From Anaerovoracaceae bacterium (GTDB lineage Bacteria; Bacillota; Clostridia; Peptostreptococcales; Anaerovoracaceae): 64,000 bases of DNA. Below are positions 2,189-64,000 of the stretch, in pieces. How positions within the stretch are numbered: position 1 is the first letter of the stretch; the number at the start of each line of letters is the position of its first letter. Both the position numbers and the translations under genes were made by a program. The notes beneath the pieces were generated by a model. That model was not told the origin of the DNA. It did no database searches and saw only the letters and a program-made list of their open reading frames with translations. The stretch lies in assembly GCA_050946575.1 (NCBI GenBank), contig JBMNVB010000005.1:39383-103382 (forward strand), in the 5' to 3' direction.

Positions 2189-4177
2189 ATGGGGAGCAGA
2201 AAAGAAGCGATAAAAAAAGATTTCACAGTATGGAAGGGTTCCGGGCTGATCCTGATAATTATCGGCGTGTGCCTTACATTTTATTCGGAGGCGTCTCCGG
2301 CCGGCAAGGCGTTCTGCGTCGCGGCATACAGCGCAGCGGCTGTATTCTCACTGACGCCGGTCTCCCGTGACAGAGGGAAAATCATACAGCGCGTCCTGTT
2401 CGCGGTCTCCCCGTTGGCGTCATATTTCATACTGGAGATCTTTACGGGCGTCGGGACCGGAAACGCCGCGGCGAAGCTTTTCTCCGTGACCGGGGCCGTG
2501 AACATATTTATTCTCGTGCTCGTACTCTGGATGTGGTATGTGATCCTGAACAAGATCAAATCGGCCGCCGTGTGTGAGATCGCGTTCGCGTTCACGCTCG
2601 GCGGGGTGGATTACATACTCATAATGTTCCGCGATTCCCCGCTGCTCGCGCACGACATCGCATCTGCCGTGACGGCGGCCGGCGTGGCCTCGAATTATTC
2701 TCTCGTCCTGTCCGCTTCGGCCGCTTACTGCATGACGTTCGCGATAATATACCTCGCGGTGCTTGCATCAATGCACGGATACAGGAGCATCGACCGGCGG
2801 CGCCGGCTCGCGTGCTGCGGCCTTTTCCTCTGCGGGGCATTGATGCTTGCAGGCGTGATGACGGGCACGAACGCGATAGGGAAAACGGAGATATCCGGCA
2901 TTGATATAACCGGAAGTTTCAAAAAGAACGGGACGGCGCTGTCCTTTGCGATGAGCGTAAGGGACGCGAAGGTCGAAAAACCGGAAGGGTACAGCGTCGC
3001 AGCCGCGAAAGAGGCGGCGGAAGGATACAGGTCGGACAGTGCCGGGACCGGACTGACCGTGTCGGAGGAGCATCCGAACGTGATCGTGGTGATGGACGAA
3101 TCGTATGCGGACCTCAGTTATCTCGGGCAGTTCGATACGGCGCAGGACTATGCGCCGTTCTACAGGAGCCTGAGTGAAAATACGATCAAGGGCACACTGC
3201 ACACGTCGGTGTTCGGCGGGAACACGGCAAACACTGAATACGAGTTCCTTACCGGGAACAGCCTCGCATTCATGCCGCTCCATATGGTGCCGTTCAACTA
3301 TAAGGCAAAGGACGGTACGCCGTCTGTGGCCCGTACGCTCGCGGCGCAGGGATACGGCGGCGACATAGCGTTCCACCCCGGCAGGGAAAGTTCATATAAC
3401 AGGAACGATATATATCCCGCATACGGATTCAAAAAGGCGATGTTCCTGGATGATGCCGCGAGCAGCGAAATGCTGCGCGCCTATCTTTCGGACAGATCGG
3501 ATTTCGAAACAATAATGAGCGAATACGAAAAATACAGAAGCGGCGGAGCGTCTGATCCGTTTTTCATGTATAACATCACCATCCAGAATCACAGCGATTA
3601 CAATGATGCGAACGGCAGGGTGAGCGGCGCCGATTATCTCAGCGGAGATCTCTCCGGCTGCGAATCGACGGAGCAGTACCTGAAGCTAGTAAGGAAGACC
3701 GACGACGCGCTGAAGGACCTTATCACGTATTACGAAAAAACGGATGAGCCGACGGTAATAATCTTCTTCGGCGACCATCAGCCGATGGTCGATGAAAAAT
3801 TCTATGACGAGGTCCTCGGAAATACAGACGGGAACATCGAAAAGGAGGAACTGAAATACCGCGTTCCGTTCATGATCTGGGCGAACTACGATATACAGGA
3901 GGAAAGCGGCGTGCAGATCTCCGCGAATTATCTCGGGTCGTATCTCCTCGATAAGATCGGAGCGCGCATGACCGGATATGATAAATACCTTCTGGATCTT
4001 TACCGGAAAGTCCCCGTGATAACATCCGTCTGCTATATGGGAGATGACGGGAAAATCAGGGAGCGCGGCGAAAAATCGAAGTACAGCCAGTACCTGCGTG
4101 AATATCAGATCCTGCAGTATAACAATACAGTGGATGCGGAAAACAGGATCGGCGGATTTTTCAGACTGCGCGAGTAA
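2189..4177 (+). CDS. LTA synthase family protein (LtaS-like sulfatase-fold membrane enzyme)
   Basis: Five or more N-terminal TM helices, then an extracellular sulfatase-type domain (VIVVMDESYADLS, GGNTANTEYEFLTGNS, FFGDHQP). Confidence 0.8.
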   Translation: MGSRKEAIKKDFTVWKGSGLILIIIGVCLTFYSEASPAGKAFCVAAYSAAAVFSLTPVSRDRGKIIQRVLFAVSPLASYFILEIFTGVGTGNAAAKLFSVTGAVNIFILVLVLWMWYVILNKIKSAAVCEIAFAFTLGGVDYILIMFRDSPLLAHDIASAVTAAGVASNYSLVLSASAAYCMTFAIIYLAVLASMHGYRSIDRRRRLACCGLFLCGALMLAGVMTGTNAIGKTEISGIDITGSFKKNGTALSFAMSVRDAKVEKPEGYSVAAAKEAAEGYRSDSAGTGLTVSEEHPNVIVVMDESYADLSYLGQFDTAQDYAPFYRSLSENTIKGTLHTSVFGGNTANTEYEFLTGNSLAFMPLHMVPFNYKAKDGTPSVARTLAAQGYGGDIAFHPGRESSYNRNDIYPAYGFKKAMFLDDAASSEMLRAYLSDRSDFETIMSEYEKYRSGGASDPFFMYNITIQNHSDYNDANGRVSGADYLSGDLSGCESTEQYLKLVRKTDDALKDLITYYEKTDEPTVIIFFGDHQPMVDEKFYDEVLGNTDGNIEKEELKYRVPFMIWANYDIQEESGVQISANYLGSYLLDKIGARMTGYDKYLLDLYRKVPVITSVCYMGDDGKIRERGEKSKYSQYLREYQILQYNNTVDAENRIGGFFRLRE

Positions 4178-5576: not shown

Positions 5577-7118
5577 ATGAGAACTGAAAGAAACCGTGAG
5601 ACGCCCGGAGTTTCGGGCGCCCCGCGCAGCCGCAGGAAAAGAAAGAGCGGAAAGCGGAAACTTTTCGTCGTTCTTATAGTACTCGCAGTACTCATTGCTG
5701 GCGCGGGGATATACGCATACTCTTATGCCGCGTCTGCCGTATCGGACGCCGGCGGCGCGATCCTTAACGGCGTGAGCATTTCAGGCATTGATGTCGGAGG
5801 GATGACAAAAGATGAAGCGAAGAGCAAACTGGACGGACGCATATCCGATTCAGAAGACGCCGTCATTTCGCTGAAGGCTGGAGAGCGCGTCAGGAAAGTC
5901 ACATACTCTTCCTTTGATCCGGAATATGACTCGTCGCAGGCCGTGAGCGCAGCATATGACGTCGGCCGGAAGGGAAATCCGTTCAGAAGATATATCGAGG
6001 TTAAGCGCGCCGAGAAAAACGGGGAGGACATCAGTCTTTCGGTCTCTGTAAAAAAATCGAAGATCAGGAGCGTTCTCAAAAAGAACGAATCGAAGCTCGT
6101 CAGCACGCCGGTAAACGCGTACATCGTCGAGAACGACGGTAAGGGCGAGATCGTAAAAGGCAGGAAGGGCCATAAGATAATCTACGCTTCGTCGATCGAA
6201 GCGGTGAACAAGGCCGTTACGGCCGACTGGACAGGGAAAGACAGGACGGTCACGCTCAGTACGAAGAAGTCCGATCCCGATATCACGGCGTCGGATCTTA
6301 AGGGCCTTACGGATATAATGGGGACGTATCAGACGAGTTACTCGGGCAGCACGTACGGAAGATGCAAAAACATTGAAAACGGAGCGTCCATACTGAACGG
6401 CACGATCGTTGAGCCGGGCGAGGAGTTCTCCATGTATAAGACGGTCACGCCGTTCTCGCCGGAGAACGGATACTATCTCGCGGGAACGATCGTTGGCGAA
6501 AAGCACATCGACGATTACGGCGGCGGGATATGCCAGGTGTCGACAACGCTGTATAACGCCGTCATACGTTCCGAGCTCAAAGTTACGGAGCGTCACAATC
6601 ATTCACTGATGATCGGATATGTGCCGGTGTCCGCCGACGCGTCTATCGCAAGCGAAAATTTCGATTTCAAATTCAAAAATAATAAGGACGATCCGATATA
6701 CATTTACGCTCAGGCGGGAGGCGGCTCGATAAAGATCACGATATTCGGGAATGACAAGCGTCCTTCGAACAGGACAGTTGAATTCGAGTCCGTCGTCGTG
6801 AACTATATACCTTACGGCACGAAAGTGATAAAGAAGGACAATACGCTTGAGGCGGGGAAGAAGAAGATCGACACGCCGGGACAGACCGGCTGCAATGCCC
6901 AGCTGTGGAAAATCGTCCTCGTAAACGGGAAGGTGAAATCGCGCACGAAGTTCAATACCAGTCACTACAACAAGGTCGACCAGAAGGTGATACTCGGGAC
7001 AAAGAAGAAGACCACGACCGATACGAAGACCGACAAGACTGACACGACGACAGACAGCAGCAGTGACAGCAGTGATGACACGACCGATGACAGCACGGAT
7101 GATTCGTCGGATTCCTGA
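5577..7118 (+). CDS. VanW family protein with C-terminal G5 domain and acidic Thr/Ser/Asp tail
   Basis: N-terminal TM anchor, VanW core (GGGICQVSTTLYNAV), a G5-like segment (TPGQTGCNAQLWKIVLVNGKV) and a low-complexity TTDTKTDKTDTTTDSSSDSSDD tail. Confidence 0.8.
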   Translation: MRTERNRETPGVSGAPRSRRKRKSGKRKLFVVLIVLAVLIAGAGIYAYSYAASAVSDAGGAILNGVSISGIDVGGMTKDEAKSKLDGRISDSEDAVISLKAGERVRKVTYSSFDPEYDSSQAVSAAYDVGRKGNPFRRYIEVKRAEKNGEDISLSVSVKKSKIRSVLKKNESKLVSTPVNAYIVENDGKGEIVKGRKGHKIIYASSIEAVNKAVTADWTGKDRTVTLSTKKSDPDITASDLKGLTDIMGTYQTSYSGSTYGRCKNIENGASILNGTIVEPGEEFSMYKTVTPFSPENGYYLAGTIVGEKHIDDYGGGICQVSTTLYNAVIRSELKVTERHNHSLMIGYVPVSADASIASENFDFKFKNNKDDPIYIYAQAGGGSIKITIFGNDKRPSNRTVEFESVVVNYIPYGTKVIKKDNTLEAGKKKIDTPGQTGCNAQLWKIVLVNGKVKSRTKFNTSHYNKVDQKVILGTKKKTTTDTKTDKTDTTTDSSSDSSDDTTDDSTDDSSDS

Positions 7119-7141
7119 AGCCGCAAGTGACCCGGAAGCAG

Positions 7142-7179
7142 AAAATAAAAGGCGGGGCCTGAGCCCCGTCTTTCAGTTT
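7142..7179. terminator. Bidirectional terminator between the convergent VanW and S8 protease genes
   Basis: GGCGGGGC-ctga-GCCCCGTC hairpin flanked by an A-run upstream and a T-run downstream. Confidence 0.7.
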
Positions 7180-7186
7180 ACGGATC

Positions 7187-9079
7187 TTATTTCAGTTTGA
7201 ATGCCACCGGATTTGAGATCGGAGCGTATATCGTCTTGCTTCCGGATTTTCTTATCGCCCGCACCCTGTAGTAGTACGTCACGTTACGCTTCATTTTCAT
7301 TCGCAGGGATGTAGCCGGCCGGTTCACGGTGACTTTTTTATACACATTCCCGGTGGATGATTTTGACTTGCATACGTAAATCTGATACTGTGTAGCGTTC
7401 GGGACGCTTGCCCAGTACACTTTCACATAATAAGTCGAGTATTTTTTCACGGACTTTACCTTGCCCTTGTTCATGGTATACATCCATGAGGAATATACCG
7501 GAGCGGAGTTGCCGTTCGCGTCTCTTGCAATTACCCTGAACTGATATTTCGTCCCGAGCGAGAGGTTCTTCGCCGTGCATGTTGTGGTCCCGCTCTCCAC
7601 ATTCGAATCGACAGAATGGAACGTTCCGCCGTACTTACGGTACTGCACGGAGTATGAAGTCGCGTCCGACGTGCCCGTCCAGGATATTTTGATCGTCCTG
7701 TATCCGGTCAGAGCGATGCTCACGTCGCTTACCGGTTCGACATAGGCTGATTTCACTGCCTTGTAAGCGTTGATGAGGCCGCTGCCGAAATAAATATCCC
7801 ATCCCGACGTTCCGAGATCTGTCGCTGTCGACTCCACGATGTCCATGACCTGGTAATTCTTGAGGTCCGGATTCGCGGACCGGACGAGGGCCGCGACTGC
7901 CGTAGCACACGGCGTGGCCATGGACGTTCCGCTCATGGATATATAACTGCTTGTCGAACCGCCGGTATAGTAAGTGGAAAGCACGTCTTCTCCCGGAGCG
8001 GCGACATCTATATATTTGTTGTATTTTGAGAAACTGGAATGTTTATTATTAATATTCGTGGATCCGACGGCTAATACATAACTCAGATATGCAGGACTGT
8101 CTACAATATATGCATCTTCATAATAGACTATATTTCCGTTGGCGGCGCAGAAAACGATATCATAATTCGAATAAGCCTGTTTTATTGCACTGGCAAGCAG
8201 GCCGTCATCTTCAGAAGCATCTCCTCCGAAGCTCATATTTATCACTTTCGCTCCGCTTTGCGCGGCGTAGTTCACCGCATTGATGATATCCGCGTCATAC
8301 ATATTCTCTCCGTCTTCGCTGACGCCGCAGACGAACAGGTCGATGACATCGTTATTCGTCCCGGCAGCGATCCCGGCGCCGCCCAGCTGGTTATTATATG
8401 TCATATTAATGATGCCGCAGACGTGTGTGCCGTGATCCGAACCAGCGGAAAGTTCCCCTTTAAATTCAGACGAGGTCCCGTTCACGAATGTCCTTGAAAG
8501 AGCGGTGTCTATAGTGAGATCCTCGTGATCCGTCTGGCATCCCGTGTCTATGACACAGACCTTCACGCCCTGCTCATAACCGTTCGTATCCATGTAGGAC
8601 CAGGCGCTTTCGGCGTTTACCTTGCCGAGCTGCCAGCATTTTTTTGCTTCCTGAGTGCAGTAGGGATCCTTAGTCGTATCATCCACTGTATATGTATAGT
8701 TAGGCTGCACGTAGACCGCTCCGTCGGCGTTCTGCATGTCCTTCAGCGCTTCTTTTACGTTATCGGTGCTGACCGTGGCCAGCTTCGATCCGTCGAGCTG
8801 CGTCGTTACCGTTTCCGCAGAATAACCCTCTTCTTTTGTTTCCTGTTTTACCTCGGATTTCGATGTCGAGTCATCGAACAGGACCAGCACCTCGTCATCC
8901 GAGTACTCCTTTCCCTTTGTCAGCTCGCTGACCGACGGCTGCTCGGAAATGACCGAAGTCTGACTTTCCGATGATGCGGCTGTTTCGGCGTGCGCATAAG
9001 GAAGCGCTGCCGGCGTGAATGCCACCAGCATTACCGCCGATGTCACGACAGCGAGTATCTTGCTCTTCAATTTGTTCAT
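7187..9079 (-). CDS. Secreted S8 (subtilisin-like) serine peptidase with two C-terminal FN3-like domains
   Basis: Signal peptide MNKLKSKILAVVTSAVMLVAF. Catalytic triad motifs VIDTG, HGTHVCG, SGTSMATP. C-terminal repeats resemble FN3 (ISWTGTSDATSYSVQYRK..; VYWASVPNATQYQIYV..). Confidence 0.9.
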   Translation of the reverse strand: MNKLKSKILAVVTSAVMLVAFTPAALPYAHAETAASSESQTSVISEQPSVSELTKGKEYSDDEVLVLFDDSTSKSEVKQETKEEGYSAETVTTQLDGSKLATVSTDNVKEALKDMQNADGAVYVQPNYTYTVDDTTKDPYCTQEAKKCWQLGKVNAESAWSYMDTNGYEQGVKVCVIDTGCQTDHEDLTIDTALSRTFVNGTSSEFKGELSAGSDHGTHVCGIINMTYNNQLGGAGIAAGTNNDVIDLFVCGVSEDGENMYDADIINAVNYAAQSGAKVINMSFGGDASEDDGLLASAIKQAYSNYDIVFCAANGNIVYYEDAYIVDSPAYLSYVLAVGSTNINNKHSSFSKYNKYIDVAAPGEDVLSTYYTGGSTSSYISMSGTSMATPCATAVAALVRSANPDLKNYQVMDIVESTATDLGTSGWDIYFGSGLINAYKAVKSAYVEPVSDVSIALTGYRTIKISWTGTSDATSYSVQYRKYGGTFHSVDSNVESGTTTCTAKNLSLGTKYQFRVIARDANGNSAPVYSSWMYTMNKGKVKSVKKYSTYYVKVYWASVPNATQYQIYVCKSKSSTGNVYKKVTVNRPATSLRMKMKRNVTYYYRVRAIRKSGSKTIYAPISNPVAFKLK

Positions 9080-9163
9080 ATTGGAAACTCCCCCTTGTAT
9101 CTGCAATTTTATAATACCGGTCCGCAAAGGTCAATATAAGGTAGGAAGTTTGTTGGTCGTGTG

Positions 9164-37752: not shown

Positions 37753-39183
37753 ATGAAAATAGTATTTATCACACCGACTACAAGAATAAAAAGGCTCGGC
37801 ATCTACCGCGCGGCCGGGAAAATATACGGTCAGCCGAATTCGATCACCGGCCCCCTCATCCTCGGCGGGATACTGAAACGCGCCGGGCATGATGTCGAAG
37901 TATACGAGGAGCTGAACGGCCCCGTACCGATGAAGCGTCTGCTGAAGGACACGGATGTGTTCTGCTTTTGCATAATGTCTTCGAACGCCCCGCGGGCGTA
38001 CGAGCTTGCGGACGAGATACGAAAGAGCAGCAATGCGAGGATCCTGATGGGAGGATTCCACGCGTCGGCGCTTCCCGAGGAAGCACTGGAGCACGCGGAT
38101 CAGGTACTCTGCGGCGAAGGGGAGAAGGTGATCCTCGATGTGGTCGAAGGACGCGTGACGGACAGCATCGTGCGATGCGAACCGATCCCCGATCTCGATG
38201 AAGTGCCGTTCCCGGATTACAGCATATTAAAGACGCCTGTCGTCAGCGCGAACGTGCTCTCGACGAGAGGCTGTCCTTTCAGGTGCACATTCTGCACGAC
38301 ATCCAGGATGTTCGATCCGTACAGGCAGCGCAGCGTTGACAATGTAATAGAGGAGATCCGGATGTACAAGCAGATGGGTTTCCGCTACATGAATTTTGAA
38401 GATGATAATTTCACAGCGGACAAGGAGCGCGCGAAGGAGATCTGCCGCAGGATGATAGCGGAGGATCTTACGTTCAAGGAGACGTTCTTCTTCGGGCGTA
38501 CGGACATGGCCAATGACGAGGAACTGCTGCGGCTCCTGAGCGAGGCGCATCTCACCCGTGTGCTGATCGGGATCGAGTCCCTCAATCAGGACGCTCTCGA
38601 CGCGGTGAACAAGGGCCAGAGCATAAACGACATCAAGCGGGCGTGCAGGGCGTGCGCCGAGCACGGAATACGCGTCATCGCGAGCATCGTGCTCGGGCTC
38701 GACCAGGACAGGAAGGAAGATATCCGCCGTTCCGTCGAGTTCACTAAATCGATAAATGCGTACCAGCTCCAGCCCGCGATACTGACGCCGTATCCCGGGA
38801 CTCCGGTATATAAGGAGATGGAGGAAGACGGGCGTCTCATCGATCATGACTGGGAAAAATACGACATGATGAACGTGACGTTCCAGCCGAAGAACATGTC
38901 GCCGTGGGATCTCCAGGAGGAGTTCTACAGAGCGACGAAACATTTCTATGATTTCAAATCTGTGAAATATATACGCGCATTGTTCGGGAATGAGTACGCC
39001 GGCAGGCGTCTCGGGCTTGCGATGGTCACGCGGCTCGGCACTGTCGGGGCCCATGCCGCATCGCATGTGAAGAATTCGATATATTATCAGATCCGTAATA
39101 CTGACTGGATCTATGCGCCGGAAAAGCCGGAAGACAAAACAGCCGGCATCGGAACTGAGCCCGAAGCCGACTGTCCTGTCTAA
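37753..39183 (+). CDS. B12-binding domain-containing radical SAM protein
   Basis: N-terminal Rossmann-like B12-binding domain (MKIVFITP..ILGGILKRAGHDVEVYE), radical SAM CPFRCTFC (CxxxCxxC). Confidence 0.8.
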   Translation: MKIVFITPTTRIKRLGIYRAAGKIYGQPNSITGPLILGGILKRAGHDVEVYEELNGPVPMKRLLKDTDVFCFCIMSSNAPRAYELADEIRKSSNARILMGGFHASALPEEALEHADQVLCGEGEKVILDVVEGRVTDSIVRCEPIPDLDEVPFPDYSILKTPVVSANVLSTRGCPFRCTFCTTSRMFDPYRQRSVDNVIEEIRMYKQMGFRYMNFEDDNFTADKERAKEICRRMIAEDLTFKETFFFGRTDMANDEELLRLLSEAHLTRVLIGIESLNQDALDAVNKGQSINDIKRACRACAEHGIRVIASIVLGLDQDRKEDIRRSVEFTKSINAYQLQPAILTPYPGTPVYKEMEEDGRLIDHDWEKYDMMNVTFQPKNMSPWDLQEEFYRATKHFYDFKSVKYIRALFGNEYAGRRLGLAMVTRLGTVGAHAASHVKNSIYYQIRNTDWIYAPEKPEDKTAGIGTEPEADCPV

Positions 39184-57602: not shown

Positions 57603-58343
57603 TCATTTGAATGATACCACATCAATGCCGTATGAGCCGGCGATGCTTTCATATCTTTCCATGGTCTCGTCTGAAGGTCTCGCGAACGATCTGTCCGGGA
57701 GATCCATGCCGAGCTGTTCGTATTTTACGTCTCCGAAACTGTGATAGGGAAGAAGCTCCAGAGACGCGCCGGGCGCATTGTCCCTTATTATCTCAAACGA
57801 GCGGCGCATCGTGTCCTCGTCCGCGTTCACGCCCTCTATCGTCGGAATGCGCACCACAAGCTCGTTATCGAGCATTGATGCCTTCCCGATATTTTCTATG
57901 ATGAGACTGTTCCCGACGCCCGTGAACTGCCTGTGCTTTTCCGGATCGGGGTGCTTGAGATCCATGAAAATGAGGTCCATTTTTTCCAGGACCGGCCGCA
58001 GCCCTTCGAAATCGAAGAAGCCGCACGTCTCTATCGCGAGACTGTAGCCCCTGTCGTACAGCGCGTCCGTCAGCTCAGCGAGAAATTCCGGCTGCGAGGT
58101 CGGTTCGCCGCCGGAAAATGTCACGCCGCCTCCCGAGAATCTGTAGAAGACATACTGCCTGTCTATCTCCTTCACGATCTCGCCGGTCTCAGCGTATCTC
58201 GTCATCGGGTTTTTCCGCGTCTGCCCCTCGGGATTCGCGCACCACGCGCACCTGAGAGGGCAGCCCGCCAGGAAAATATTCGTTCTTATGCCTTCGCCGT
58301 CATTGACGGAGAAGTTCTGTAGCTGCATTATGTAGCCGCCCAT
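57603..58343 (-). CDS. Glycyl-radical enzyme activating protein (radical SAM)
   Basis: GCPLRCAWCANPE (CxxxCxxC) cluster motif. Alternative start at 58328. Confidence 0.9.
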   Translation of the reverse strand: MGGYIMQLQNFSVNDGEGIRTNIFLAGCPLRCAWCANPEGQTRKNPMTRYAETGEIVKEIDRQYVFYRFSGGGVTFSGGEPTSQPEFLAELTDALYDRGYSLAIETCGFFDFEGLRPVLEKMDLIFMDLKHPDPEKHRQFTGVGNSLIIENIGKASMLDNELVVRIPTIEGVNADEDTMRRSFEIIRDNAPGASLELLPYHSFGDVKYEQLGMDLPDRSFARPSDETMERYESIAGSYGIDVVSFK

Positions 58344-58359
58344 TCGTCCTCCCGTCCTT

Positions 58360-60726
58360 TTAGAATACGTGCTCCGTGCGCGCTATGATCGCGTCCTGCA
58401 TCGATTTCGAAAGGTTCACGAACTGCGCGGAATATCCGGCTACTCTGACAAGCAGATCCTTGTAGTTCTCCGGATGTGCCTGGGCGTCTCTCAGAGTGTC
58501 GGACGATATGCAGTTGAACTGCACGTGGAACGCTCCGAGGGAGAACAGTGTCTGGATCATCGATCCGAGGTTCGCCTGTCCGCGCTTCGTCGCGACTACG
58601 TCCGGATTCAGCCTGAGGTTGAGCAGCGTGCCGCCGGAGTGGATCTCCTGATTTACCTTCGCTGTCGACTTCATCGCCGCGAGCGGTGTGGACTTGTCCG
58701 TTCCGACATACGGGCTCACGCCTTCGCTCGAAGGATCGCCGTTTTTCCTGCCGTCCGGCGTCGCGCCGAGGACGCGTCCCATCGGGATGTAGTTCGAGAT
58801 GCCCATGAATGCCGTCGTGAACGGCGAGCCGAATATATCCTTATATCCGTGGATCTCGTGATAGAAGTGGTTGGAGATCTCTGTCGCGATCTCGTCCACG
58901 TAATCGTCGTCATTGCCGTATTTCGGGCAGTTCTGAGCCTTCTCGCGCAGATCTTCGTATCCTTCCCAGTTCGCCTGCAGCGCTTTCGCGAGTATATCGA
59001 TGTCGCACACTCTGTCTTCGAATACGAGTTTCTTTATCGCCGCGAGTGAATTCGCCGCGACCGCGAGGCCGATGCCCGTGATGACGGGGCCGATGTTGTA
59101 TTTCGCTCCGCCGCGCGACAGATCCTTTCCGGATTCCATGCAGTTCTCTATGCAGGATGACAGGAACGGGCGCGGCACCTGATCTCTGTGGATGCGCTGC
59201 GCTTCCACTGTCAGTATCACGGAGTGCCTGCACAGATTGTCGAACTGGCGCAGGAATGCGTCCTTGACTTCCTCATATGTTTTGAACTGGGCCGCCGGCT
59301 TCTCGTCAAGGCCCATTTTTTCTCCGGTCATGAGGCTGCGCCCTTCGTTCAGCGCGTATTCTATCGCGGAGCCGAAGTTCATATTTACCGCCGCCGTCCA
59401 TTCGCCGGTCTTTCTGTTGTGAGGCACTACGCATCCGCAGTTGTTCCAGTCTCTCGCGTCTTCGGGTTCGTATCCCGCGTTCAGGAGCATCTGATATCCC
59501 ACGCTGTCCGAGTGGATCGCCGGGAAGCCCGTGCCCTTGCTCACGAGACTCGTGACCGCGTCAAGGAATTCCTTCGGGCAGTCCGCCTGCACTCTGACCG
59601 AGAGGCCCGGCTGATGCGTCTTTACCTCTTCCGTCGCCTTCATCGCCATATATGTCACCGGGTTCGTCCCGTCGCTCCCGTCGCGCTTCTTCCCGCCGAC
59701 CGTGAGGTTCTGGAACTGGTTATATCCCGCGAAGTAATCCGCCGTGTTCGAGGAGATCGTCCATACCCATTCCGAGTATTTGAGCCACAGCGCGTCTACG
59801 AGCTCCTGAGCGAATTCGGGGGTGATATTGCCTGAAGCAATGTCTGATTCGTAATATGGGTCCATATACTGGTCGAAGCGTCCGGGATTCAGCGAGAGTG
59901 GATTCTCGGACAGTATCCCGCCGATCTGGACGAACCAGATGAACTGCAGGGCTTCATAGAAATTCTCCGGAGGATTTTCCGGCACCCTGCGGCAGTTCTG
60001 CGCTATGACCCTCAGCTCTTCCGCGCGCTTCGGATCCTTTTCCTCCTTCGACATTTCCTCTGCCTTGTCGGCGTAGCGGTTCGCGTATCTGATAATGCCC
60101 TTCGAGGTCAGTATGATCGATTCGTAGAAATCCTTCTTTTCTTCGTCTTCGGGATCGGCGATATCGAGCTTGGATATATGATTCTCGGCTTCGGTCACGA
60201 TGCCGCCGAATCCTTTCTTGAACAGGACGCCCTGATAGTCCGGCGTCACTTCTCCGACGGCCTGGCGCCATTTCGAGTCACTGTCGATCACGCCCGTGTC
60301 CACGCCGATATGTTTCGTTTCTTCCGGAAGTCTCGCGAGGAACGCCTCCTCCAGCGATTTTCCCTTCCAGTACGGGAAAATGTTCTCACGGATGAATTTC
60401 CTCTGCTCTTCGGTGATCTGATACGGATCCTGCGGACGCTTGTCGAATGTATCCATTTCCTTATCGACCCACATCCACGAGAATTCGGGGGTCAGGATGC
60501 CGCACTTGCGGAATTCGCCCGTGGCTCCCACTATGAGCTCCCCTTCGAAAATGTGCACGCCGATCTGCGAGCAGCAGTCATAGAACGCCTGCGCCGAGCG
60601 GATGGCGGGGGACTTTCCTTCAGTCCTCTTATATGACTCCGTCCACAGCCATGCGCGTTCATATGAGATCTGCGGCTTCGAATTTACGTAATTCTGTCTG
60701 ATTTTCTCAATGCGATCAGTGACCAT
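58360..60726 (-). CDS. Glycyl radical enzyme, PFL/glycerol-dehydratase-like family, substrate unknown
   Basis: C-terminal RVAGYSAQF glycyl-radical motif (Gly codon 58435-58437). Cys loop NNCGCVVPH (59425-59439). N-terminus typical of the dehydratase-like subgroup (ERAWLWTESYK..ELIVG). Confidence 0.9.
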   Translation of the reverse strand: MVTDRIEKIRQNYVNSKPQISYERAWLWTESYKRTEGKSPAIRSAQAFYDCCSQIGVHIFEGELIVGATGEFRKCGILTPEFSWMWVDKEMDTFDKRPQDPYQITEEQRKFIRENIFPYWKGKSLEEAFLARLPEETKHIGVDTGVIDSDSKWRQAVGEVTPDYQGVLFKKGFGGIVTEAENHISKLDIADPEDEEKKDFYESIILTSKGIIRYANRYADKAEEMSKEEKDPKRAEELRVIAQNCRRVPENPPENFYEALQFIWFVQIGGILSENPLSLNPGRFDQYMDPYYESDIASGNITPEFAQELVDALWLKYSEWVWTISSNTADYFAGYNQFQNLTVGGKKRDGSDGTNPVTYMAMKATEEVKTHQPGLSVRVQADCPKEFLDAVTSLVSKGTGFPAIHSDSVGYQMLLNAGYEPEDARDWNNCGCVVPHNRKTGEWTAAVNMNFGSAIEYALNEGRSLMTGEKMGLDEKPAAQFKTYEEVKDAFLRQFDNLCRHSVILTVEAQRIHRDQVPRPFLSSCIENCMESGKDLSRGGAKYNIGPVITGIGLAVAANSLAAIKKLVFEDRVCDIDILAKALQANWEGYEDLREKAQNCPKYGNDDDYVDEIATEISNHFYHEIHGYKDIFGSPFTTAFMGISNYIPMGRVLGATPDGRKNGDPSSEGVSPYVGTDKSTPLAAMKSTAKVNQEIHSGGTLLNLRLNPDVVATKRGQANLGSMIQTLFSLGAFHVQFNCISSDTLRDAQAHPENYKDLLVRVAGYSAQFVNLSKSMQDAIIARTEHVF

Positions 60727-60755
60727 TGTTCCACCTCCGGATAATATCCCAAACA

Positions 60756-60824
60756 ATATTCTGTTTTTGTGTCTGATATTCTGTTTTTAAAGTACCATAT
60801 TATGCACGCGAGGTCAATATTCTG
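60756..60824 (-). promoter_or_regulatory. Three direct CAGAATAT repeats in the GRE promoter/leader, with a candidate TTGACC-17-TACTTT promoter
   Basis: Plus-strand ATATTCTG at 60756, 60776 and 60817. The first two extend to ATATTCTGTTTTT, 20 nt apart. Confidence 0.45.
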
Positions 60825-61556: not shown

Positions 61557-61604
61557 CGGGATACACAACAGTGCGTCATCGTGATATAATCAGGATGTGA
61601 ATAT

Positions 61605-61800
61605 CATATGGCGCCGAGTTCTCCCGCATCGCGGGAGCTGAGAGGGAAGCGGGTCGGAATCCCGCGCGGTCCCGCCACTGTATTCGGAAGCGAGCCCAGA
61701 TAAAGGCCACTGGCGCGAGCCGGGAAGGCCGGGCGGAAGCAATGCCGTAAGCCAGGAGACCTGCTCGATGCCTGCCATGCGGGTGACGGAGGATCGCCCT
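61605..61800 (+). promoter_or_regulatory. Cobalamin (B12) riboswitch
   Basis: AGGGAAGCGGGTCGGAATCCCGCGCGGTCCCGCCACTGT core and B12-box-like GCCAGGAGACCTGC. Confidence 0.85.
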
Positions 61801-61830
61801 GCGGCGAATACACGCGACAGAAAAAACGGA

Positions 61831-61856
61831 ACTGCCCGAAAGGGCAGTTTTTATTT
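61831..61856 (+). terminator. Riboswitch expression-platform terminator
   Basis: ACTGCCC-gaaa-GGGCAGT plus TTTTATTTT, 27 nt before the downstream start codon region. Confidence 0.8.
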
Positions 61857-61882
61857 TCAGTCATTATCAGGAGGAGTGGAAC

Positions 61883-63670
61883 ATGGATACGGGGAAACGC
61901 ATACGCACAGCGGTACTTGCCGCGATCGTCGCGGTCTCGATGCTTGTGCCGCAGGTATCTTTCGCGGCCGCTGCGGACGACGGCGATGAACTTCCGGATC
62001 AGGCCGGATACACGCAGTCTCTGTGGAAATGGACATTCAGCGGGACGTCGGGAGGAACGTGGCAGAACGCCGTGACTCCGCCGGCTCTCATAAACGGCAG
62101 CATTTACGTTGCGGCCGGGGACAGGGTATATAAACTGGACGCGGAGACAGGAGAACAGGAAGCGAAGTCTCCTGATTTAGGAACGGCGCCGGCGTTCGGA
62201 TACGCGACGCAGCCGGTCACGTCCGACAGCGACGGAAATATCTATACGACGACGCAGCAGACCGAGAACGGCGTCACGACAACACATGTCGTGAAACTGA
62301 CGTCGGATCTTTCTTCGATATCCTGGACGAGCAGTGAAGGCATCACGGGGCAGAACATCTCGCCGGTCACATACATAAACGGCAGGATATACACCGGCAC
62401 ATTCACGAACACGAGCGGCGGAACGTATCAATGCATTGATGCGGAAAGCGGAGATACTGTGTGGACTGTGAAGAACGACGGCGGGTTCTACTGGTGCGGA
62501 GCCGCGGAGGTGAACGACAGTCAGGTCGTGTTCGGAAGTGAGGACGGCACGGTATATTCTGTTTCCGAGACAGCGGACAGCGCGGACGACATAGAGACGC
62601 TCACGCTTGAGGGCAGCATTGTCCGCAGCACGCCGGCTGTTTCGGGCAGCAATGTTTACATAACAACTAAATCGGAGACGGCGACCGCGAACATATACAG
62701 ACTTTCCGTCGGCGATGACGGATCTCTTACACAGGATGCGGCGGCGTCCTTCGGGGATTCCGTGAACACGCCGGTGATCTGCGACGGATATGTTTTCGCC
62801 GGGAATTCCGACGGAGAGGTCGCGGTATTCGACAGCGACCTGAACAAAAAGGCTTCCGCGAGCGCACCGGCATCCGTGCAGGGAGAGATGCTGGTGAGCG
62901 GCGGCAGCGGGAGCGGCTATTCGGCATACGTCACATATAATGCCAAGCCGGGAGGGATCGGTCTGGTTAAATTCAGCGCGGATCTTTCGGACGCGGAGTA
63001 CAGTTCGCTGTATAATCCGCTGGAATCGCAGTACTGCATATCGCCGGTCATAAGCGGGAACGGAGTCCTGTATTACAAGAACGATTCGAACACGATATTC
63101 GCCGTAAAGACAGGAGATCCGGACCGGTCACTGCTGAAGAATCTGAAGGCCGCGTCGCTCTCCTACAAATCGATCAGGATTTACTGGACGAAGCGCGATA
63201 ATGTGTCAAGATACGATATTTACAGATCGACATCGAAAACAGGCAAATATACAAAAGTGAAATCGCTGTCGGGAACGTCCGGGTTATTCACCGACACGAA
63301 TGTCACGTGCGGCCGCGCATATTATTACAAAGTGCGCGCGCAGCTTATCAGCGGGAAATACACCTCGATGACGGGCCCCGTTTCCGCGGTGCCGGTAGTG
63401 GCCGCGCCGAAGCTGTACGCGTACGCGGGGACAGCGAGCGTCACTCTTAAATGGTCGAAAGCGTACGGGGCTTCCGGATACAGAGTGTTCCGGTCGACGA
63501 GCAGGAGCGGCAAATACTCCTGCGTATGCACGACGAAATCGAACACGTGGAAGAATTCGAAGCTTTCCCGCAGGAAGATCTACTATTACAAGGTAAGACC
63601 GTACAGAATGGTCGGGAAAAAGCGCATATACGGCAAGTGGTCGAACGTTGCATATAAAAAGACAAAATAA
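61883..63670 (+). CDS. Secreted PQQ-like beta-propeller repeat protein with two C-terminal FN3-like domains
   Basis: Signal peptide (AVLAAIVAVSMLVPQVSFAAA). Repeated beta-propeller blade motifs (GDRVYKLDAETGE, GTVYSVSE, GEVAVFDSD, NTIFAVK). C-terminal FN3-like pair resembling the tail of the S8 protease. Confidence 0.8.
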   Translation: MDTGKRIRTAVLAAIVAVSMLVPQVSFAAAADDGDELPDQAGYTQSLWKWTFSGTSGGTWQNAVTPPALINGSIYVAAGDRVYKLDAETGEQEAKSPDLGTAPAFGYATQPVTSDSDGNIYTTTQQTENGVTTTHVVKLTSDLSSISWTSSEGITGQNISPVTYINGRIYTGTFTNTSGGTYQCIDAESGDTVWTVKNDGGFYWCGAAEVNDSQVVFGSEDGTVYSVSETADSADDIETLTLEGSIVRSTPAVSGSNVYITTKSETATANIYRLSVGDDGSLTQDAAASFGDSVNTPVICDGYVFAGNSDGEVAVFDSDLNKKASASAPASVQGEMLVSGGSGSGYSAYVTYNAKPGGIGLVKFSADLSDAEYSSLYNPLESQYCISPVISGNGVLYYKNDSNTIFAVKTGDPDRSLLKNLKAASLSYKSIRIYWTKRDNVSRYDIYRSTSKTGKYTKVKSLSGTSGLFTDTNVTCGRAYYYKVRAQLISGKYTSMTGPVSAVPVVAAPKLYAYAGTASVTLKWSKAYGASGYRVFRSTSRSGKYSCVCTTKSNTWKNSKLSRRKIYYYKVRPYRMVGKKRIYGKWSNVAYKKTK

Positions 63671-63691
63671 CAGAAACTGAGGAGGGTAAAG

Positions 63692-64000
63692 ATGAAACAT
63701 ATTGCAGGAACATTAGTGTGTGCGCTCGCGCTGGTCATCGCGGCCGCATTCATGCCGCAGCCGGCCGAAGCCGCGGGCAGCAGCGCCACCGTGACATTCA
63801 CGTCATCCACGGAATGGGGATTCAATCTCCTGAACCGGAAGGTGACCGCGACCAGCGGACTCGTGGAGAAATACTATCCCGATATCGAGGAAAGCTCGGG
63901 AGTAACGGCCGGAGACGTTCTCGTTGCCGCCCATATCCAGAAATACGGGAAGGCGTTCACGAATGATCCGACGGAATTCATGGAAATCGTGGACAGCGAT
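63692..64000 (+). CDS. Secreted protein, 5' partial (runs off the window)
   Basis: GAGGAGGG RBS and signal peptide MKHIAGTLVCALALVIAAAFMPQPAEA. The frame stays open to the window end; not listed in the ORF track because no stop is reached. Confidence 0.65.
   Translation, partial: MKHIAGTLVCALALVIAAAFMPQPAEAAGSSATVTFTSSTEWGFNLLNRKVTATSGLVEKYYPDIEESSGVTAGDVLVAAHIQKYGKAFTNDPTEFMEIVDSD

Follow-up and report, generated by a model that had tools for sequence, protein, structure and literature searches.

A cobalamin riboswitch-controlled operon for two secreted proteins, a candidate corrinoid-capture system of a Gram-positive anaerobe

Microbes of the gut and rumen compete for B12-type cofactors, and this competition shapes their communities; extracellular capture of these compounds by Bacteroidota is known in detail. 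The surface lipoproteins of Bacteroides include BtuG, BtuH, BtuJ, and BtuK, of which BtuG and BtuK are seven-bladed propellers (PMC13616437). BtuK1 binds cyanocobalamin and leaves the ligand largely solvent exposed, suggesting hand-off (PMC13616437), and BtuK2 was deposited as 'quinoprotein alcohol dehydrogenase-like'. Eukaryotic B12 carriers of the transcobalamin type contain DUF4430 as their C-terminal domain (PMC4350170). According to a 2026 review, what such capture proteins do in Gram-positive bacteria 'remains entirely uncharacterized', and our literature search returned no relevant paper on a Firmicutes cobalamin riboswitch that controls a PQQ-type propeller or DUF4430. Here we describe a two-gene operon at the 3' end of a 64,000-nucleotide stretch of contig JBMNVB010000005.1 (hereafter the window). 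The host is a Gram-positive anaerobe of the Anaerovoracaceae-like Clostridia. The operon is led by a cobalamin riboswitch and encodes a secreted beta-propeller protein (gene 1) and a second secreted protein (gene 2, the partner).

We propose that expression of both genes is repressed by B12 and that their products are held at the cell wall, where they capture extracellular corrinoids for an energy-coupling factor (ECF)-type importer encoded elsewhere in the genome, and we put the probability of this reading at roughly 0.68. The pair is probably a Gram-positive way of extracellular B12 capture that has so far gone undescribed. The proposal is built on the riboswitch, the secretion signals, the domain make-up of both proteins, and the conserved linkage and fusions found in relatives, all of which are shown here.

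The operon leader matched the cobalamin riboswitch family RF00174 of Rfam over the full model (positions 1 to 189 of 189), scoring 110.6 bits against a gathering score of 31.5 (E value, 7.8e-27), and the same match was found on the public contigs L001 and L002. A sigma-70-like promoter precedes the aptamer. Between the aptamer and the ribosome-binding site of gene 1 (AGGAGGAG) lies a GC-rich hairpin of 10 bp with a GAAA loop (61828 to 61851), followed by a T-run to about 61856; the ATG of gene 1 is at 61883. The terminator-like hairpin was present in both the minimum-free-energy and the centroid folds, and the order of promoter, aptamer, and terminator is repeated in the related loci L021 and L010. 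A first-pass annotation of this DNA had described a well-formed B12 riboswitch with a terminator and had named RF00174 as the check to make. Both elements were recovered, with a score far above the gathering score and the whole model covered; only the coordinates had been a few bases off, since the aptamer starts at 61599 and not at 61605.

The 595-amino-acid product of gene 1 begins with a Sec-type signal sequence without a lipobox cysteine. Its propeller matched Pfam family PQQ_2 (PF13360) at 44.3 bits (cutoff, 27.6; E value, 2.3e-11). An AlphaFold2 model (predicted local distance difference test [pLDDT], 87; predicted template modeling score [pTM], 0.78) contains about 31 to 32 propeller strands between residues 44 and 410, followed by two C-terminal beta-sandwiches. 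The top Foldseek matches were BamB, tetrathionate hydrolase, the designed protein Cake8, and Bacillus YxaL, and the target-normalized TM-scores against BamB and Cake8 were 0.77 to 0.82. BamB and Cake8 are eight-bladed propellers. The gene 1 propeller is assigned to the PQQ/BamB class and, judging from the model, looks eight-bladed. The propeller has a conserved face (W148, Q157, W194, and G201-F-Y-W204). It is strongly acidic (isoelectric point [pI], 4.05; charge, -31), whereas the two FN3-like domains are basic (pI, 10.1 and 10.5; charge, +12 and +23). The N-terminal signal sequence, the Pfam match, the model, and the domain charges agree with the earlier description of a signal-peptide protein with a PQQ-like propeller and two basic C-terminal FN3-like domains.

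Gene 2 begins 21 nt downstream of gene 1, and the window ends within it. The truncated second signal-peptide protein of the first-pass annotation could be completed from public contig L001 (11810 to 12820); it comprises 336 amino acids, carries a readable signal sequence, and ends at about window-equivalent position 64702. Two acidic domains precede its FN3 domain (pI, 11.1; charge, +22), and neither had a significant Pfam match. The 103 residues inside the window matched nothing in Pfam or NCBIfam, and the full protein gave only weak matches to fn3 and beta-sandwich families. Sequence searches of the PDB with gene 2 and with its family profile returned FN3 matches only, or none. The family alignment of gene 2 contains an invariant motif, DVLVAAHIxKYG.

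The N-terminal domain of gene 2 is linked to the B12 carriers by profile comparison. When 86 N-domain sequences were compared by hhalign with 24 DUF4430 sequences, none of which was shared by the two sets, the probability was 94.2% (E value, 1.1e-7) for an alignment of 112 columns that spans almost the entire domain. Controls made by reversal, by column shuffling, or with other domains reached a probability of at most 2.1%. A first comparison of the partner family with three DUF4430 proteins, made with shallow alignments, had given a probability of 0.9%, and significance appeared only after both alignments were deepened. We therefore consider this domain a putative remote homologue of DUF4430, the transcobalamin beta-domain, and gene 2 at least as good a candidate corrinoid binder as the propeller.

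Table 1. Features of the operon (nucleotide positions refer to the window, residues to the encoded protein)
Feature	Position	Strand	Basis or remark
Promoter-like site	61562..61590	+	TACACA-17 nt-TATAAT, extended -10 TG; consensus scan, 10/12 matches
Cobalamin riboswitch aptamer (RF00174)	61599..61782	+	Covariance-model match
Intrinsic-terminator-like hairpin and T-run, presumed expression platform	61828..61856	+	Pattern scan
Gene 1, 595-aa secreted protein	61883..63670	+	Open reading frame
Gene 1 signal peptide, residues 1-28	61883-61966	+	...VPQVSFA/AAADD, read from sequence
Gene 1 acidic PQQ/BamB-type propeller, residues 29-415	61967-63127	+	Pfam PQQ_2 and AlphaFold2 model
Gene 1 basic FN3-like domain a	63128-63397	+	
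Gene 1 basic FN3-like domain b	63398-63667	+	
Gene 2, 5' part only in window	63692..64000	+	Ribosome-binding site GAGGAGGG; signal sequence ...PQPAEA/AGSS
Gene 2 signal peptide	residues 1-27		
Gene 2 DUF4430-like N-domain	residues 28-155		
Gene 2 transthyretin/DUF4198-like beta-sandwich	residues 156-252		
Gene 2 basic FN3 domain	residues 253-336		

Each of the two proteins has few close relatives, yet their families travel together. Related loci were collected by exact-protein look-ups and by a scan of one genome per GTDB species with a profile of the non-FN3 part of the partner. The propeller and partner genes were adjacent or a few genes apart in 16 related loci, and all relatives bearing the pair were Bacillota of the class Clostridia, including the cultured Aminicella lysinilytica DSM 28287 (Anaerovoracaceae; NZ_SNXO01000004.1), in which the propeller and partner genes occupy positions 7060 to 8835 and 8860 to 9948 of L021. 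Of the 15 lineages with upstream DNA, 12 have RF00174 ahead of the pair on the same strand; in four other lineages, the upstream side is cut by contig ends. The named list has eleven entries: the window, L005-7, L008/L009/L021 (the same or very close species, counted once), L010, L012-14, L015, L025, L027, L028, L030, and L032. Across the riboswitch-linked lineages, the partner is 25 to 76% identical to the query. Linkage of the pair to the riboswitch is frequent, not universal.

Three of the more distant loci differ in layout. In L027, L028, and L030, the order is reversed, with the riboswitch followed by the partner and, some genes later, by the propeller. L028 and L030 contain two tandem full-length matches to the partner module, and L027 contains one full match and a short second one. 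L028 control may be translational, because no terminator-like hairpin follows its aptamer.

The genes beside the pair in relatives point to corrinoid uptake. Loci L012-14 run from the riboswitch to a canonical DUF4430 gene, the propeller, and the partner, with EcfT and a fused A-A'-S gene immediately upstream. In L015/L016, the gene string reads riboswitch, EcfT, EcfA-A', S component, AP_endonuc_2, DUF4430, propeller, and partner. Overall, ECF T, A, A', and S genes share the gene string of the pair in L012, L015, and L024, and a cobalamin riboswitch lies near the ECF genes in L012 and L015. Canonical DUF4430 genes neighbor the pair in eight loci (L012, L015, L022, L023, L024, L028, L031, and L034). 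The AP_endonuc_2 gene occurs in L015 (3632 to 4432), L016 (1084 to 1884), and L027 (59 to 823), and the L015 copy weakly resembles the cobamide-remodeling phosphodiesterase CbiR of NCBIfam (E value, 4e-7; 29.7 bits, below the cutoff of 105). The linked S components matched vitamin-type families (ECF-ribofla_trS and ECF_trnsprt), which are generic S-component families, and matched no metal-type S-component family. Because these S components fall in generic families and had no sequence match in the PDB, CbrT included, it is their genomic context that suggests a B12 specificity for the linked transporter.

Domain fusions connect the same elements. A profile of the first two domains of the partner, searched against 1.84 billion representatives, retrieved 1407 clusters (50% identity) at E values of up to 1e-3 and 613 at 1e-10; this module has no Pfam family of its own, and many of the proteins bearing it are giant, multidomain, and equipped with tandem copies. 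Among 146 proteins newly retrieved in the best 150 hits, 10 are fused to a gene 1-type propeller (E values down to 6e-84), and 6 of these 10 fusions also contain a canonical DUF4430. The corrinoid-related role that had been suggested from the riboswitch is therefore supported by the conserved pair, the recurrent RF00174, the ECF, DUF4430, and weakly CbiR-like neighbors, and the DUF4430 fusions.

The fusion P0178 (L035) is SLH anchored, and its gene has those for RACo, a corrinoid protein, and a methyltransferase as neighbors. Also next to it is a riboswitch-led operon on the minus strand (L035, 1 to 5240) in which a cobalamin riboswitch (86.9 bits) is followed by genes for an alpha-toroid (SQHop_cyclase_C/Prenyltrans)-SLH protein, DUF4430, EcfT, and a fused EcfA-A'-S. 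The alpha-toroid and DUF4430 of this operon together look like a split, S-layer-anchored bacterial transcobalamin. Giant surface proteins of 926 to 2541 amino acids (P0178, P0179, P0190, P0241, P0250, P0253, P0258, P0265, and others) combine tandem partner modules, a gene 1-type propeller, canonical DUF4430, and cadherin-like and SLH domains.

The leader anatomy suggests how the pair would be regulated. When intracellular cobalamin is low, RNA polymerase would read through the terminator and both genes would be expressed; when cobalamin is bound, transcription would stop at the hairpin. Judging from the signal peptides, Sec would export both proteins. Their strongly basic FN3 tails would then hold them at the anionic cell wall, where one or both of two domains, the acidic propeller of protein 1 and the DUF4430-like domain of protein 2, would bind corrinoids. 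The captured corrinoids would be passed to an ECF-type vitamin importer encoded elsewhere in the genome. We infer the binding and hand-off steps from the gene neighborhood, the domain fusions, and the remote homology.

The proposed role of the tails draws on their charge and on the occurrence of a like tail on an unrelated secreted protease. The window encodes a secreted S8 peptidase (7190 to 9127, minus strand) with an acidic catalytic part (pI, 4.2; charge, -36) and a C-terminal FN3 domain (pI, 10.45; charge, +21) that is homologous to the tails of the pair (35% identity; E value, 8e-7). Homologues of these FN3 domains sit on amidases, L,D-transpeptidases, NlpC/P60 proteins, GH25 lysozymes, and S8 peptidases. 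We infer that basic FN3 tails of this kind serve generally to retain proteins at the wall. The window also encodes a 662-amino-acid Sulfatase-family protein (2189 to 4177, plus strand), which could be an LtaS-type lipoteichoic acid synthase; if so, it would supply an anionic wall polymer for the basic tails.

A more elaborate model can be built on the capture of corrinoids by the pair, and we advance it tentatively, as a possibility about which we are doubtful. The acidic propeller and the DUF4430-like partner may clamp a corrinoid between them, as a split counterpart of transcobalamin in which the propeller replaces the alpha-toroid, with the FN3 tails serving as a previously unrecognized electrostatic wall anchor. 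The ligand might be contacted by His81, an invariant residue of the partner that lies in the motif DVLVAAHIxKYG. The pair, canonical DUF4430 proteins, and an ECF importer would then constitute a wall-spanning corrinoid relay. Such a relay would be widespread in Clostridia, since 1407 protein clusters carry the partner module, and it would be the Gram-positive equivalent of the BtuJ/H/G relay of Bacteroides and of the Isd heme relay.

Several observations weigh against the proposal that the pair captures corrinoids. Pfam DUF4430 (PF14478) was not matched by gene 2 even at E values of up to 10, and it was matched by only 1 of 12 members of the gene 2 family (E value, 0.017). The DUF4430 signature SGW-x-Y-x-VNG is not kept, as the Trp is absent and the GW motif is lost; a remnant is visible as KCYINNK in gene 2 and, in the consensus of its family, as y-x-v-N. 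For gene 2, AlphaFold2 produced an unreliable model from an eight-sequence alignment, with pLDDT values below 50 in the N-terminal domains, and therefore we claim no fold evidence for the N-domain; Foldseek matched this model to FN3 tandems only, which is uninformative for that domain. A search of the PDB with the gene 1 family profile at E values of up to 10 found no BtuG or BtuK chain and returned only BamB, PQQ, and Cake entries, and BtuG and BtuK were absent among the 50 Foldseek matches listed for gene 1. Corrinoid binding by either protein and attachment of the FN3 tails to the cell wall are both predictions. Because folding of truncated transcripts and a duplex search revealed no convincing antiterminator pairing, the OFF-switch logic follows from the layout of the leader. 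No riboswitch was found in L017, L023, L024, and L026, even by a sensitive Rfam search. Finally, the operon is not accompanied by a transporter, DUF4430, or B12 gene of its own, and ECF T, A, A', and S genes are absent from the 10 kb on each side.

This last result matches the first-pass annotation, which had seen no transporter or cobalamin biosynthesis gene and had envisaged a surface trap feeding a BtuFCD or ECF importer. The importer half of that idea finds support in the ECF genes beside the pair in relatives and none in this operon, which contains no transporter. The operon is bicistronic and ends after gene 2, so that its continuation into an unrelated B12-dependent pathway, which had been considered, was not borne out. 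Gene 2 is followed by a terminator-like hairpin (read by eye), a gene for an NhaC-type antiporter, and an Asn/Asp-tRNA synthetase gene. No btuB gene lies within 10 kb of the operon, and Pfam searches of ten other open reading frames of the window identified no B12 transport or biosynthesis genes.

Each alternative that we considered is less well supported than corrinoid capture. The pair could act on corrinoid carriers or on corrinoids themselves, stripping B12 from host, dietary, or competitor binders or remodeling corrinoids extracellularly before uptake. This alternative, which we consider unlikely, shares the riboswitch, neighborhood, and fusion context with corrinoid capture, and it is favored by the presence of an enzyme, tetrathionate hydrolase, among the closest structural matches of the propeller and by the weakly CbiR-like gene in the L015 operon. 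However, neither protein showed a recognizable catalytic motif, most members of the PQQ_2/BamB class are nonenzymatic scaffolds, BamB and YxaL among them, and in the eukaryotic B12 carriers, DUF4430 serves as a binding domain.

Cobalt uptake for B12 synthesis is another process under the control of B12 riboswitches, and the pair might capture cobalt or nickel on behalf of an ECF transporter of metals. The NikK/CbiK-type extracytoplasmic components of Ni/Co ECF systems belong to DUF4198, and the middle domain of the partner is weakly DUF4198-like: the family was weakly matched in 7 of 12 members and in 23 of 54 distant relatives (best E value, 6.5e-14). However, where the matches were inspected closely, they were confined to the C-terminal part of the model (profile positions 184 to 208 of 209 in gene 2 and 159 to 208 in P0178), which is a generic beta-sandwich that is also matched by CarboxypepD_reg. 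In addition, the linked S components match vitamin-type families, and whole corrinoids are the ligands suggested by the DUF4430 and weakly CbiR-like genes in the neighborhood. We consider metal capture very unlikely.

We give equally little credence to the idea that the pair is a B12-independent substitute, silenced by ample B12 in the manner of metE or nrd, or that it has an unrelated surface function such as adhesion or wall remodeling. The operon does stand alone in this genome with no transport genes nearby, and its type of FN3 tail is common to many wall-active enzymes. However, the known B12-independent substitutes are cytoplasmic enzymes, and this explanation leaves unaccounted for the ECF, DUF4430, and weakly CbiR-like linkage, the DUF4430 fusions across distant lineages, and the DUF4430-like domain itself. 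We consider the possibility of a chance riboswitch match, a chance pairing of the genes, or an assembly artifact negligible, given the E value of 7.8e-27, the identical arrangement on four independent public contigs, and its recurrence in the cultured isolate genome L021.

The arrangement in the window is identical to that on public contig JGI 3300060803 (207 kb) and is shared by three other assemblies. The genome uses B12, since the window encodes a cobalamin-dependent radical SAM enzyme whose N terminus carries a B12-binding domain (PF02310 and PF04055; about 37753 to 39183, plus strand). Two further riboswitches were found in the window: a tandem glycine riboswitch (RF00504; 4240 to 4320 and 4343 to 4446, plus strand; 37.4 and 60.9 bits) and a thiamine pyrophosphate riboswitch (RF00059; 106 to 207, minus strand) whose 55.8 bits lie just above the gathering score of 54.3. 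Upstream of the operon, a cluster on the minus strand (57603 to 60756) encodes a pyruvate formate-lyase-like glycyl-radical enzyme (798-amino-acid open reading frame) and its radical SAM activase. A Cupin/HTH regulator gene adjoins the activase gene on the side away from the operon.

The locus represents a conserved, riboswitch-marked candidate system whose proteins have no detectable homology to BtuG or BtuK. It also suggests a likely function for the partner module, which lacked annotation although its family is large (about 1400 clusters at 50% identity), and points to a possible new wall-retention domain. The cultured carrier, Aminicella lysinilytica DSM 28287, makes the question directly testable.

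Among the known systems, BtuG is alike in being an extracytoplasmic beta-propeller that is encoded in a cobalamin riboswitch locus and captures corrinoid ahead of a membrane transporter (PMC13616437). However, BtuG is seven bladed and lipid anchored and docks on the TonB-dependent outer membrane transporter BtuB, whereas gene 1 looks eight bladed, belongs to the PQQ/BamB class, has a Sec signal without a lipobox, carries basic FN3 tails, and functions in a cell with no outer membrane. Homology of gene 1 to BtuG or BtuK was considered and rejected, as there was no PDB profile match and neither protein was among the listed structural matches. Because of these results, the resemblance to BtuG is at most functional, and the parallel that had been drawn in the first-pass annotation is not one of homology. 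BtuK1 and BtuK2 likewise combine a propeller with Ig-like domains, and BtuK is encoded in a B12 uptake operon. BtuK differs in having an N-terminal PKD domain instead of C-terminal FN3 domains and seven blades where gene 1 appears to have eight, and gene 1 had no sequence match or listed structural match to the BtuK entries 9S6C and 4R5O.

The second point of comparison is the beta domain of transcobalamin, intrinsic factor, and haptocorrin. Almost the entire N-domain of gene 2 can be aligned to DUF4430, and canonical DUF4430 proteins neighbor the pair or are fused to it in relatives. Gene 2 differs in that it has no Pfam-level match, a reduced signature, and a motif of its own (DVLVAAHIxKYG), and no alpha-toroid partner is encoded in the operon. 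ECF-CbrT of Lactobacillus delbrueckii, as described, works without extracellular accessory proteins (PMC5997447), and it differs further from our system in that no ECF genes are present in the window operon. It is similar in that ECF T, A, A', and vitamin-type S genes lie beside the pair in L012, L015, and L024. In the Isd/NEAT heme relay, wall-associated proteins capture a tetrapyrrole and pass it to a membrane importer, and their expression is set by nutrient supply. That relay differs in its NEAT folds, its sortase anchoring, its regulation by Fur instead of a riboswitch, and its ligand, whereas the concept of capture and relay is the same as the one that we propose for this pair.

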